From NCBI GenBank assembly GCA_049419605.1, contig JBMSKF010000005.1, positions 58-64,057 of the forward strand: a stretch of 64,000 nt of DNA. The letters run 5' to 3'. Below are positions 33,131-37,221 of the stretch, one piece after another. The DNA comes from Bacilli bacterium. GTDB taxonomy: Bacteria; Bacillota_I; Bacilli_A; RFN20; CAG-826. Each line of letters begins with the position of its first letter. Position 1 is the stretch's first letter. Both the position numbers and the translations under genes were made by a program. The notes under the pieces are model-generated. The model ran no database searches. It worked only from the letters and a program-made list of their open reading frames with translations, and had not been told where the DNA came from.

Positions 33131-34255
33131 ATGATCATTGGTGTCCCAAAAGAAATTAAAAAATTAGAATATCGCGTCGGCTTAACCCCAGCATCTGCAA
33201 AGGCATACCTACAAGCTGGTCATCAAGTTTTGATTCAACAAGATGCAGGTTTAGGGTCGGGTTTTTCAAATGATGAATACCTTCATGTGGGTTGTAAAAT
33301 TTTATCCACCATTCAAGAAGTTTATGCAAAAGCTGAAATGATTATTAAGGTAAAAGAACCACTTGAAGAAGAATTTAATTTACTAAGACCTCATCAAATT
33401 CTTTATACCTTTTTACATTTAGCCGCGGCAAAACCGCTTACCGATGCCTTATTAAAAAATAAAGTCACTGCAATTGCTTATGAAACTATTAAAGATACAA
33501 ATGGTAGACTTCCAGTGCTAAGACCAATGTCAGAAGTTGCGGGTCGACTCGCTGTACAAGAAGGCGCTAAATTTTTAGAAAAAGCTTTTGGTGGTCGCGG
33601 TGTTTTATTGGGTGGTATTCCAGGTGTTGAACCTGGTCATGTCGTTGTCTTAGGTGCGAATGGTTATGCTGGATTTAATGCCACACAAATTGCACTTGGT
33701 ATGCAAGCGAAAGTCACCGCGATTGACGTCAAGTTTAATCAAGTCGAAACCTTACTACCATTTGCCAATGGTCGATTAACGATGTTGACCTCTAACGAAA
33801 CCAATATTCTCAATAGTATTCAACATGCCGATCTTGTTGTCTCTACCGTCCTTATTCCTGGAGATGCTGCGCCTAAACTGATTAAAAAGTCTTATTTGAA
33901 AATGATGCCAAAAGGTTCAGTCATCGTTGATGTGGCGATTGATCAAGGCGGCAGTACGGAAACTAGTAAAGTAACGTACCATGATCAACCCATTTATGAA
34001 ATCGATGGCGTCATTCATTACTGTGTTGCGAATATGCCAGGGGCAGTGCCGCGAACTTCCACGATTGGTTTAAATCAAGCAACCCTTCCTTTTGGTTTAG
34101 CGATCGCAAATTTAGGATTCAAAGAAGCAATGAAAAAAGATCCGGGTCTAGCAAGCGGACTTAACACATACCAAGGCAAGATTACTTTCCCGGCCTTAGC
34201 CCAATTATTTAAATTACCTTTATTAACCGTTAACGAAGTGATTTCAACACGTTGA
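33131..34255 (+). CDS. ald: Alanine dehydrogenase
   Basis: MIIGVPKEIKKLEYRVGLTP N-terminus and the GxGxxG NAD site VVVLGANGYAG. 374 aa. Confidence 0.9.
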   Translation: MIIGVPKEIKKLEYRVGLTPASAKAYLQAGHQVLIQQDAGLGSGFSNDEYLHVGCKILSTIQEVYAKAEMIIKVKEPLEEEFNLLRPHQILYTFLHLAAAKPLTDALLKNKVTAIAYETIKDTNGRLPVLRPMSEVAGRLAVQEGAKFLEKAFGGRGVLLGGIPGVEPGHVVVLGANGYAGFNATQIALGMQAKVTAIDVKFNQVETLLPFANGRLTMLTSNETNILNSIQHADLVVSTVLIPGDAAPKLIKKSYLKMMPKGSVIVDVAIDQGGSTETSKVTYHDQPIYEIDGVIHYCVANMPGAVPRTSTIGLNQATLPFGLAIANLGFKEAMKKDPGLASGLNTYQGKITFPALAQLFKLPLLTVNEVISTR

Positions 34256-34661
34256 TCATCGACAAGGCTGCTATTGCACATTCATAACCTTTGTTGGTTT
34301 TATCTCCTTTCGCACGGGCTTCTGCCTGTGCTTCATTGTCTGTAGTTAACACACCAAAAATCACAGGTTTCATTAATTTCAAACCTACATCCATAATGCC
34401 TCGTGCTGTTTCTGAACACACATAATCATAGTGACTGGTTTCTCCACGAATCACTGCCCCTAAACAAATCACCGCAGCGGTCATCATTTGTTGGCCAGCA
34501 GCAAGGGCGGCAATCGGTAATTCAAATGCACCAGGAACTTTAGTTACAACAATGTTTTGTTTGGAAAACTTTTGGTCAGTCAAGGCGCGTAATGCACCTT
34601 GTAAAAGTTGTTCAGGAATAGGGTTATTGAATTCGGAAACGATAATGTGAATTTTTTTCAT
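34230..34661 (-). CDS. ribH: 6,7-dimethyl-8-ribityllumazine synthase
   Basis: VPGAFELP and GETSHYDYV motifs. An AAGGAGG RBS sits in the 12-nt gap after ribB. The 3' end overlaps ald by 26 nt. Confidence 0.9.
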   Translation of the reverse strand: MKKIHIIVSEFNNPIPEQLLQGALRALTDQKFSKQNIVVTKVPGAFELPIAALAAGQQMMTAAVICLGAVIRGETSHYDYVCSETARGIMDVGLKLMKPVIFGVLTTDNEAQAEARAKGDKTNKGYECAIAALSMINVLKSLR

Positions 34662-34673
34662 GAGTGAACCTCC

Positions 34674-35273
34674 TTATGGTTTCATGAGTTGACTAATCTC
34701 TAAAATTGGCATCCTTAATTTGGTCGCAAGTTTAAATAAATCTTGACGACGGGCCATCTTACCATTGGGTAATATAATTTCACAAATGACGGCTACCGGT
34801 TTGAGTTTAGCTAACTGCATTAAGGCTAAAGATGCTTCCGTGTGGCCAGGTCGAGATTGAACACCACCCGCTTTACCGATAAGAGGAAAGATATGACCAG
34901 GTCTAACAAAATCATCTATTTTTGCATTTGGATTTGCCAATTGATTTAATGTATCTGCCCGTTCTTGAGCACTTATCCCAGTTGTATTGGTTTTTGCATC
35001 AATGGACACTGTAAATGCAGTACGGAAACTTTCAGTATTGGTTTTGACCATCAATGGTAAGTCTAGTTTTTTAGCAATGGTATCACTAATGGGAGCGCAC
35101 ACTAAACCTTTACCTAGTGTAATCATGGTGTTGATTGTTTTTTCAGTCGCGAATTCCGCCGCCATTACAAAATCACCTTCATTTTCACGATGAATATCGT
35201 CGACCAAGATAATCAATCGACCTTTTTGTAAGGCATGAATAGCTTCTAAAAGTGATGAAAATTTTGTTTTCAT
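34674..35273 (-). CDS. ribB: 3,4-dihydroxy-2-butanone-4-phosphate synthase, stand-alone (no GTP cyclohydrolase II domain)
   Basis: VDDIHRENEGDFVMAAE and RPGHTEAS motifs. The protein is 199 aa and ends 12 nt before ribH. Confidence 0.9.
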   Translation of the reverse strand: MKTKFSSLLEAIHALQKGRLIILVDDIHRENEGDFVMAAEFATEKTINTMITLGKGLVCAPISDTIAKKLDLPLMVKTNTESFRTAFTVSIDAKTNTTGISAQERADTLNQLANPNAKIDDFVRPGHIFPLIGKAGGVQSRPGHTEASLALMQLAKLKPVAVICEIILPNGKMARRQDLFKLATKLRMPILEISQLMKP

Positions 35274-35857
35274 TTTTGCATTAATTTCTCAACATACTTC
35301 GCCAGCATATCGACTTCAATATTAACTGGATCACCAATCTTCTTGGATAATAAAGTGGTATGTAGTTTCGTGTGAGGAATAATCCAAAGTGCAAAAGACG
35401 TTTTCGTTACATCGGTTAAAGTTAAAGAAATACCATCCACTGCCACACTACCTTTTTGAATCATATATTTGGTGAGCGTTTCTGGCACTTCAATCGTGAC
35501 GATGGTGGCAATGCCTTCTTGCTTAAGATTAATAATTTTACCAACGCCATCAACATGGCCTGAAACTTGATGACCCCCATTTCGTTGACTCGCGGCAAGG
35601 GCTCTTTCTAAGTTAATACCCGTCCCTTCTTTCCATAATCGTAAAGCGGTGACCTGAATGGTTTCTTTCATCACTTCCACATCGTAAGTTCTCAATGATT
35701 TTTTCACAACCGTTAAACAAATCCCGTCATGCGCAATCGAGTCACCAAGTTTTGTACCCTTTAAAACCTGTTTAGCTTGAATGGTGTAACGGAAACCATC
35801 TGCAAGTTGCTGTATTTTTTGAATGGTACCAATTTCTTCAATAATGCCTGAGAACAT
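35270..35857 (-). CDS. ribE: Riboflavin synthase alpha chain
   Basis: MFSGIIEEIG N-terminus and an internal duplication (GDSIAHDGICLTV / GSVAVDGISLTL). The start at 35857 is preferred over the track extension to 35908. Confidence 0.9.
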   Translation of the reverse strand: MFSGIIEEIGTIQKIQQLADGFRYTIQAKQVLKGTKLGDSIAHDGICLTVVKKSLRTYDVEVMKETIQVTALRLWKEGTGINLERALAASQRNGGHQVSGHVDGVGKIINLKQEGIATIVTIEVPETLTKYMIQKGSVAVDGISLTLTDVTKTSFALWIIPHTKLHTTLLSKKIGDPVNIEVDMLAKYVEKLMQK

Positions 35858-35858
35858 A

Positions 35859-36281
35859 TTATTTAAACCTTTCAAAATAAGCTTGATTGAGTGAGCGATT
35901 TTCAGCATCCATCAAACCCGTGACGACTTCGATTCCAGCTTTTTTCAATACGTTGACGCCATCTCCATTTTCGATGGGGTTGGGATCCAAAGAAGCGATC
36001 ACAACCTTTTTAACTTTCTTGCGAATTAAAAATTGAGCACAAGAAGGAAAATAATCATCGTGTGCACATGGTTCTAACGTCACATAGACAGTGGAACCTT
36101 CTACATCAAAGTCTTGGTCTTTAAAGGCGGCAAATTCTGCATGTAGACCAAAAAGTTTTTCGTGGTAACCCTTGGTAATGACATGGCGATTTTTGGTAAA
36201 TACAGCGCCGACCAAAGGATCATGACCCACCATCCCTTTTGCCTGCGCAGCAAGGGTGAAGGCTTGTCTCATAAAATCCAT
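35859..36281 (-). CDS. ribD: RibD-like pyrimidine deaminase domain only (no reductase domain)
   Basis: HAEFAAF and TLEPCAH...PSC zinc-ligand motifs. About 140 aa. The stop lies 1 nt before the ribE ATG. The track extension to 36350 runs into the riboswitch. Confidence 0.8.
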   Translation of the reverse strand: MDFMRQAFTLAAQAKGMVGHDPLVGAVFTKNRHVITKGYHEKLFGLHAEFAAFKDQDFDVEGSTVYVTLEPCAHDDYFPSCAQFLIRKKVKKVVIASLDPNPIENGDGVNVLKKAGIEVVTGLMDAENRSLNQAYFERFK

Positions 36282-36295
36282 GTCTGTTTTAATTT

Positions 36296-36469
36296 TCAAA
36301 TAAAAACCCTGACCTTTAAGTAAGTTCAGGGTACATATGAAAAATGACATCTTCTTTCATCCAGACTTTACTGTCGCCACTTGAATTACACAAGTTCCTG
36401 CATTGCTGCTCGCGGGGTTGACCGCCGATTGGGAGTTACACCCTACCCTGAAGATACGCTTATATTATA
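36296..36469 (-). promoter_or_regulatory. FMN riboswitch (RFN element) with a terminator expression platform and a TATAAT -10
   Basis: Minus strand reads TCTTCAGGGTAGGGTGTAACTCCCAATCGGCGGTCAACCCCGCGAGC...GGCGACAGTAAAGTCTGGATGAAAGAAGATG, which matches conserved RFN cores. A terminator follows: ACCCTGAACttacttaaagGTCAGGGTTTTTATTT (36302-36332). TATAAT is at 36469-36464. Confidence 0.9.
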
Positions 36470-36567: not shown

Positions 36568-37221
36568 ATGAAAGTAATAATCACTGGAGATCATCTACCT
36601 GTCTTAACGTTAGAACTAAGTGCCAAAGACACCATTTACACTGAAAATGATGTCACCACGATTTCATTGATTACCCCTGAAATCACGAAGAAAACAATTT
36701 CAACTGCAAAAAAACTTAATCCATTTTTTTCAAAGTTAATTTTTGGTGATGCTAAAGTTTTGGATGAATATAAAGCGACGAAAGCAGAAAGCATCATGGC
36801 ATTCTCCGCGCCTTTACCAGGACAAATTGTTACTCTAAACATTACCAAATCAAAACCAATCGTCATTAAAAAAGGTTCGTTATTGGCCATGACTAAAGGC
36901 TTAGAAATTAAACCGAGAAAGAAGTTTAATTTATGGGACGCTTTGTTTGGCAATGATGATTTAGCATTACAAGTCTTAAGCGGCCAAGGAACTGCCTATA
37001 TTCTTATCGATAAGGATGCAAAAACATATAACTTAACGAAAGGTAAAGCTTTAAGTTTTGATCAAGCGGCAGTTGCATATATGGATGCTTCCATGACCTT
37101 AATGGTGAAACGTACGAATATTTTTAAAGCCTTCTTTTTTGGAGGTAACGACGTAATTAAATATAAAGTGACTGGTCCAGGTAAAATCGTCACCCAAAAC
37201 GCAAACTACCAAAGGATGTAA
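36568..37221 (+). CDS. AIM24/DUF124 (TIGR00266-like) family protein
   Basis: 217 aa. The N-terminal pattern MKVIITGDHLPVLTLELSAKDTIYTE and the overall beta-rich composition resemble the family. Judged by eye only. Confidence 0.45.
   Translation: MKVIITGDHLPVLTLELSAKDTIYTENDVTTISLITPEITKKTISTAKKLNPFFSKLIFGDAKVLDEYKATKAESIMAFSAPLPGQIVTLNITKSKPIVIKKGSLLAMTKGLEIKPRKKFNLWDALFGNDDLALQVLSGQGTAYILIDKDAKTYNLTKGKALSFDQAAVAYMDASMTLMVKRTNIFKAFFFGGNDVIKYKVTGPGKIVTQNANYQRM

Follow-up and report, generated by a model that had tools for sequence, protein, structure and literature searches.

Riboflavin genes of a freshwater Bacilli genome appear to be divided between a riboswitch operon and a second, riboswitch-free locus

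How can riboflavin be made from an operon in which two of the usual enzyme domains are missing? This question is raised by a 64,000-nucleotide stretch of DNA (the window; positions 58-64057 of contig C5) from the metagenome-assembled genome (MAG) of a Bacilli bacterium, an assembly of 998 kb in 38 contigs that is 92.6% complete. The window carries, on its minus strand, a flavin mononucleotide (FMN) riboswitch followed by ribD, ribE, ribB and ribH, with ribD encoding only a deaminase and ribB only a DHBP synthase (DHBP being 3,4-dihydroxy-2-butanone 4-phosphate). The initial annotation had concluded that GTP cyclohydrolase II (GCHII) and the RibD reductase are lacking, and had proposed that the two steps are either encoded elsewhere as stand-alone genes or bypassed by means of an imported pyrimidine intermediate or an alternative one. 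Taken as the question was put, there is little out of the ordinary here: the "missing" steps are encoded at a second locus. The relocated enzymes, on the other hand, belong to an unusual, older two-gene module that is invisible from the window alone. Judged from profile matches and catalytic motifs, a complete riboflavin pathway is very probably divided over two complementary loci of this one genome.

The riboswitch operon and a second locus

The operon layout that had been described held in every structural respect, positions included, and consists of the following features.

36345..36459, minus strand: FMN riboswitch aptamer (RFN element); RF00050 98.5 bits, E 1.4e-21, model positions 1-138, full length
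36298..36332, minus strand: expression platform, an intrinsic-terminator hairpin (ACCCUGA/UCAGGGU) and then the U-run UUUUUAUUU; from sequence reading and folding
35859..36281, minus strand: ribD, deaminase domain only, 140 aa; PF00383 53.9 bits, TIGR00326 120.6 bits over profile positions 1-135 of 343
35270..35857, minus strand: ribE, riboflavin synthase, 195 aa; PF00677 twice, 162 bits; NF006767 230.9 bits (cut-off 155)
34674..35273, minus strand: ribB, monofunctional DHBP synthase, 199 aa; PF00926 254.8 bits over profile positions 2-190 of 191; TIGR00506 211.5 bits (cut-off 177)
34230..34661, minus strand: ribH, lumazine synthase, 143 aa; PF00885 168.5 bits; TIGR00114 137.6 bits (cut-off 84.6)

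Profile matches to the ribD product cover the deaminase half of RibD alone and those to the ribB product the DHBP synthase domain alone, while ribE and ribH are both equivalog-level matches. The contrast drawn with the usual fused layout is also sound, since RibD and RibBA are both fusions, in the same gene order, in canonical operons from Clostridia and other phyla. The ribD stop codon (TAA, 35861-35859) lies 1 nt from the ribE ATG (35857), ribE and ribB overlap in ATGA, and the ribB TAA is followed by GGAGGTTCACTC, 12 nt that include GGAGG, and then by the ribH ATG.

The aptamer exceeds the RF00050 gathering score of 66.2 and has an expression platform behind it. The hairpin stands directly behind the aptamer in both the minimum-free-energy and the centroid folds, which implies that the leader would work by transcription termination or attenuation; a simple terminator scan misses this hairpin because its stem is interrupted and lies beyond the scan's loop limit of 3-8 bases. 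A promoter scan around the riboswitch gave no signal above shuffles. A spurious open reading frame (ORF) of 163 aa opens at position 36350 (36282-36350, minus strand) with an in-frame ATG that falls within the 3' part of the riboswitch, and several database proteins of the deaminase clade (P0001-P0003, also 163 aa) appear to use this start, thus reading through the terminator.

In whole-assembly profile searches, GCHII (PF00925, 260 bits) and the RibD_C reductase (PF01872, 170 bits) each gave exactly one domain match, and the two are adjacent on contig C9 (17566-19532). The genes of this second locus (locus 2), together with a gene on contig C8 that bears on the end of the pathway, are as follows.

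C9:17566-18306: stand-alone RibD_C reductase, 246 aa; PF01872 170 bits; TIGR00227 199.9 bits (cut-off 150)
C9:18321-19532: RibBA-like protein, 403 aa; PF00925 257 bits, PF00926 32 bits
C8:8684-9592: RibF; TIGR00083 222 bits, above cut-off

The reductase belongs to RibD_C and TIGR00227 and retains 36 of 42 conserved columns. The gene for the 403-aa RibBA-like protein begins 14 nt downstream, and the C-terminal half of its product is a complete GCHII, with the zinc site Cys-x2-Gly-x7-Cys-x-Cys present as ECLTGDAFGSQRCDC and with all 54 of the columns in which 61 canonical RibBA proteins show at least 95% invariance. The N-terminal DHBP synthase (DHBPS) domain is degenerate, with a PF00926 score of 32 bits and only 12 of the 50 invariant columns retained, versus 43 of 50 in the window's RibB, in which the RENEGD motif is intact. 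In the 403-aa protein RENEGD has become LDSPAH, PGH has become DVG and GHTE has become SPFE, and the domain appears catalytically dead. Neither locus encodes a bifunctional RibD: against TIGR00326 the window protein covers positions 1-135 and the C9 protein positions 128-342, both below the equivalog cut-off. The statement that GCHII and the RibD reductase are lacking is therefore right for the operon and wrong for the genome. The split pathway that the initial annotation had itself set down as the ordinary outcome, with intact ribA and reductase genes elsewhere, is what the whole-genome search found; the reductase is indeed a stand-alone gene, whereas the cyclohydrolase strictly is not, as it retains a degenerate DHBPS domain.

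These assignments also bear on the proposal that the genome truly lacks both steps and that the operon runs on an imported pyrimidine intermediate or an alternative one. Nothing beyond the operon's own content speaks for such a supply, which is superfluous given that the GCHII and reductase genes exist in the genome; with both genes intact, present once each and conserved with the operon across the genus, we consider it very improbable. Each riboflavin-pathway activity is predicted to be encoded once, the two gaps of the operon being exactly what locus 2 would supply. In the divided pathway, the FMN riboswitch would control by termination the deaminase, riboflavin synthase, monofunctional DHBP synthase and lumazine synthase of locus 1, and this operon would complement the older module at locus 2, in which an NADPH pyrimidine reductase and a GCHII with a dead DHBPS domain would act outside riboswitch control. 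RibF, to which the conversion of riboflavin to FMN and flavin adenine dinucleotide is assigned on its profile score, would finish the pathway.

Three observations weigh against a complete pathway divided in this way. As is the case for most bacteria, no dedicated phosphatase for 5-amino-6-ribitylamino-2,4(1H,3H)-pyrimidinedione 5'-phosphate (ARPP) was identified. The deaminase is without the canonical phosphate-binding Lys/Arg-Thr, and its activity on the usual substrate is not assured. Finally, contigs C5 and C9 are joined by MAG binning and not by physical linkage; their binning is supported by their similar G+C (0.376 and 0.383) and by the fact that most species of the genus have both loci.

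The division of the genes would also divide their regulation. A whole-genome search found one FMN riboswitch, that of the window operon, with no second one genome-wide and none in an Rfam search of the 18 kb around locus 2, where the reductase gene is separated from its divergent upstream neighbor by about 30 nt, too short to hold an aptamer. With locus 2 free of a riboswitch, FMN feedback would bear on the deaminase, on the branch that makes DHBP and on the final two steps, but not on GCHII. The riboswitch would thus be left in charge of half the pathway, and the GTP branch would escape it at its first step, GCHII. A weak terminator-like site lies between the two-gene module and rnfC, which bears on co-transcription with rnf.

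Locus 2 (L003:4660-14470, where L003 is C9:10000-28000) stands between divergent flavoprotein genes, encoding a DASH cryptochrome and a DPRP photolyase-related protein, and rnfCDGEA, whose products form a complex that contains flavin. This layout is shared by the genus's deepest species (L117), except that a glycerophosphodiester phosphodiesterase (GDPD) gene is inserted there before rnfC. The cryptochrome, the photolyase-related protein and Rnf give this genome several flavin-dependent proteins, and it is a matter of speculation whether its riboflavin pathway is linked to how sensitive riboflavin is to light in surface water.

Occurrence in the genus and absence from the order

Related loci come from MAGs of uncultured freshwater Bacilli or Bacillota from lakes and rivers. 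Among 18 genomes of the genus, which are 63-93% complete, the genes of the two loci were found as follows.

Stand-alone ribB: 17 of 18 genomes
Deaminase-only gene: 14 of 18 genomes
Cyclohydrolase with dead DHBPS domain: 16 of 18 genomes
RibD_C reductase: 16 of 18 genomes

Both loci thus recur in split form across the genus. The open frame of the deaminase is complete in 12 genomes (152-173 aa) and shorter at contig ends in two more, and that of ribB measures 204-276 aa in 17 genomes. Distant members, with deaminase identities of 53-56%, have the four-gene operon between glyA and ald-MFS-pfkB. In the window, the 3' end of ribH overlaps the convergent alanine dehydrogenase gene (33131-34255, plus strand) by 26 nt (34230-34255), leaving zero intergenic space for terminators, and a comparable overlap of 12 nt is found in one distant relative (L097). 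An AIM24-family gene (36568-37221, plus strand) lies between glyA and the riboswitch in the window and is not at that place in the distant relatives L097 and L099.

This recurrence bears on whether the truncations are artefacts of assembly or sequencing, or signs of an operon in decay. The source being a MAG, such errors would be conceivable; the same stops and boundaries, however, recur in independently assembled genomes, down to deaminase identities of 60% among the species genomes and 51% among database proteins. The four ORFs score above curated family cut-offs or retain catalytic motifs, and the riboswitch is full length. We regard an artefact or a decaying operon as extremely improbable, and the judgement that this is not simple decay stands, while the suggestion of stops created by sequencing errors does not.

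Outside the genus, neither lumazine synthase (RibH) nor GCHII was found in any of 200 other genomes of the order, which span 52 genera; in control genomes, RibH was detected in 14 of 14 and GCHII in 10 of 14. As far as gene content predicts it, riboflavin synthesis is a genus-level trait within an otherwise auxotrophic order. We infer that the pathway was gained by the genus and not lost by all of its relatives, acquisition being the more parsimonious account where the alternative is dozens of losses. A donor was not identified; among canonical RibBA proteins the closest, which come from Clostridia, are only 43-46% identical. One freshwater genus with a predicted full vitamin B2 pathway, set against 200 genomes of its order with none, would be a clean example of a streamlined planktonic lineage that has regained prototrophy. 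Several public MAG records of the freshwater lineage and of a module-carrying lineage (L020, L021, L022 and P0156) carry the names Staphylococcus epidermidis, Staphylococcus sp. or Bacillus subtilis, which are almost certainly wrong.

The two-gene module and the order of reactions

The remaining question is in which order the separate reductase and deaminase would act on the GCHII product, 2,5-diamino-6-ribosylamino-4(3H)-pyrimidinone 5'-phosphate (DAROPP). In the ordinary bacterial order, the deaminase follows GCHII and the reductase receives 5-amino-6-ribosylamino-2,4(1H,3H)-pyrimidinedione 5'-phosphate (AROPP). In the fungal and archaeal order, the reductase comes first, yielding 2,5-diamino-6-ribitylamino-4(3H)-pyrimidinone 5'-phosphate (DARIPP), and the deaminase comes last.

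In an alignment with B. subtilis RibG (2b3z), Lys151 of RibG (K152 of E. coli RibD) is matched by Ser in the reductase, as it is in 111 of the 111 clade members retrieved, and the reductase so departs from the AROPP-specific bacterial type; Lys was found at this position in 31 canonical RibD ORFs, wherever the motif match resolved it. Selection of the deaminated substrate, AROPP, is attributed to a Lys at this site, where fungi have Thr and archaea Asn, and the Thr35Lys change in yeast RIB7 moves its preference from DAROPP towards AROPP (PMC3631187). The uniform loss of the selecting Lys thus speaks against the ordinary bacterial order. The top solved-structure matches of the reductase are the archaeal-type 2azn (M. 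jannaschii) and 6p8c, ahead of B. subtilis RibG. The archaeal origin that these matches suggested was rejected, since a maximum-likelihood tree that included three archaeal-type sequences (2azn, 6p8c and 5xv0) placed the Ser-type reductases in one clade (100/98), apart from the archaeal-type sequences and among bacterial RibD; B. subtilis RibG is on a long branch, and the exact sister relation of the Ser-type clade is unsure. A single clade within bacterial RibD would make the Ser change one bacterial innovation and not an archaeal import, and this nesting is a point in favor of the ordinary order.

The deaminase gives a mixed picture. Its HAE, EPC...C (PC-x8-C) and DPNP motifs are intact, as they are in 60 of 60 aligned clade members, and it retains 37 of 44 canonical invariant columns. 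The residues that match Asp101 and Asn103 of B. subtilis RibG, which contact the ribose hydroxyls (PMC8256712), are kept, and the best solved-structure matches are bacterial RibD proteins (97-107 bits), with no fungal Rib2 among the matches at E <= 1e-5; descent from bacterial RibD and retention of the ribose contacts both fit the ordinary order. The ribose-phosphate loop, on the other hand, is remodelled, with EPCAHDDYFPSC in place of EPCxHxG[KR]TPPC. The phosphate-binding residues H-Y-G-K-T-P-P have become H-D-D-Y-F-P-S, with loss of RibG K79 and T80, and Asn23 of RibG (2b3z) is Asp; in RibG, Lys79 is salt-bridged to the substrate phosphate (PMC8256712). The HDD[YL][FY] loop is common across the clade (P0001-P0063), down to 51% identity and with a few variants at the fourth position, whereas other short deaminases from the same search (e.g. 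P0064-P0068 and P0072-P0073) keep the canonical G[KR]T loop.

Further evidence comes from the history of locus 2. The deepest species of the genus has as its reductase a RibD-like protein of 356 aa, which begins with a 130-residue remnant of the deaminase that has neither HAE nor the Cys motifs; Pfam sees only RibD_C in this protein. A dead deaminase remnant fused to the reductase indicates that locus 2 descends from a full-length ribD together with ribBA. A search of 5.8 billion proteins placed the reductase in a large group of relatives of 240-250 or 340-373 aa, all without the deaminase zinc motifs. Five contexts in other lineages (L123, L124, L126, L127 and L128) have such a reductase followed directly by a RibBA-type gene without RENEGD, and none has ribE, ribH or a deaminase within 10 kb of the module. 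The RibBA-type proteins of these modules are 53-57% identical overall to that of the window genome, versus at most 46% for canonical RibBA, and they have the degenerate N-domain signature in common with the 403-aa protein. Their N-domain diverges faster than the GCHII domain (31-86% versus 73-98% identity) and is still full length and open, which suggests that the dead DHBPS domain retains a structural role. Duplication within the genus followed by reciprocal loss was considered as an origin of the two loci and found only partly tenable, as the same degenerate signatures occur in module proteins of unrelated genomes. The module is by the same token older than the genus, and we infer that locus 2 represents this older, self-contained unit of cyclohydrolase plus reductase.

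The genomes that carry the module can be informative about its substrate. One of the five contexts is OW818673.1 (L123, 8001-10296), a 2.0-Mb chromosome with no lumazine synthase, in which the sole deaminase match is TadA-like. For this chromosome and 40 relatives, matches to a chimeric RibH and RibBA query were read by query range, and only one of the 12 genomes with a RibBA-type match also had RibH. The module without lumazine synthase is accordingly found in at least 11 genomes, of about 1.2-2.2 Mb (including G223-G229, G232, G240 and G243), its reductase often carrying a dead deaminase domain. A divergent RibD deaminase in a module-only genome (G222) was considered and rejected, the match being TadA-like with a PCAMC motif. 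On the unrelated contigs L123, L124, L126, L127 and L128, rhodanese-domain genes, MatE efflux genes and MarR or redox genes, the last including glutathione peroxidase and a coenzyme A-disulfide-reductase-like fusion, recur no more than a few kb from the module, and these neighbors may hint at a redox or stress context. The RibBA-type gene of the module has one in-frame TAA in G227, G228 and G243, which could reflect decay, sequencing error or an alignment that runs past the stop.

Together, the Ser-type reductase, the module without lumazine synthase and the changed deaminase loop suggest, without proving it, that reduction precedes deamination. With the selecting Lys gone and no RibD-type deaminase in at least one module genome, it can be proposed with moderate confidence that the reductase acts directly on the GCHII product, and the remodelled deaminase would then act on the ribityl compound. 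We tentatively favor, at somewhat short of even odds, a pathway in the fungal and archaeal order, with DAROPP from GCHII, DARIPP from the Ser-type reductase and the remodelled stand-alone deaminase last, which would have arisen by coupling the riboswitch operon to a pre-existing module of dead-deaminase::Ser-reductase and dead-DHBPS::GCHII. On this reduction-first account, the occurrence of the module in at least 11 genomes without lumazine synthase would point to a second role, in which its diaminopyrimidine product serves a use other than riboflavin. The same split pathway running in the ordinary bacterial order, with the Ser and loop changes neutral or compensated, is a serious contender that we nevertheless hold to be rather less than an even bet. 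Besides the lost Lys, it must account for the genomes in which the reductase stands beside GCHII with no lumazine synthase; the one such genome searched for a RibD-type deaminase has none, and the reductase there can only receive the un-deaminated GCHII product. A reduction-first order is not listed for bacteria in a 2026 review (PMC13151069), and no description of the two-gene module or of such a route in bacteria was found in the literature searched.

Comparison with known systems

The ribDG-ribE-ribAB-ribH operon of B. subtilis, whose layout canonical Clostridia operons also show, has the same type of leader (FMN aptamer plus terminator), the same D-E-B-H order and the same four enzyme families as the operon in the window. 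The window operon differs in that its ribD lacks the reductase half and its ribB the GCHII half, both of which are found at an unlinked, riboswitch-free locus. In the scattered rib genes of the E. coli type, GCHII and DHBPS are likewise distinct proteins, each encoded at a locus of its own. They differ in that RibD remains fused in E. coli and RibA carries no remnant of a DHBPS domain.

The fungal and archaeal route, in which the Rib7 or ArfC reductase acts before the Rib2 deaminase, is similar in that the two activities reside on separate polypeptides and the reductase lacks the selecting Lys (Thr in fungi, Asn in archaea and Ser here). It differs in that the reductase of this genome appears to be a derivative of bacterial RibD, the deaminase is RibD-like and not Rib2-like, and the reaction order is here deduced. 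In bacteria without lumazine synthase, the Ser-type reductase and GCHII module is a puzzling metabolic unit, and it also offers a handle on whether some bacteria reduce first. The residual interest of the system lies in the module, in its presence in genomes unable to make riboflavin and in the possible reduction-first order.

The closest parallels are found in plants. Arabidopsis RIBA3 keeps both domains and has GCHII activity only, its DHBPS activity having been lost (PMC3509567), and the 403-aa protein, with two domains and an apparently lost DHBPS activity, resembles it. In place of one bifunctional RibD, plants have two RibD homologues, PyrD and PyrR (PMC6793443). The separate deaminase and reductase described here parallel this pair as well as fungal Rib2 and Rib7. 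The deaminase-like domain of plant PyrR is non-catalytic, and in this PyrR resembles the 356-aa form of the deepest species of the genus. The plant enzymes differ in being eukaryotic, plastid-targeted, of independent origin, ordered as in bacteria and assayed, whereas the bacterial ones are known from sequence. Nothing here is categorically new: the arrangement is a bacterial variant of known ones, and its complementary domain loss would be a counterpart in bacteria to that of RIBA3 and of PyrD and PyrR in plants.

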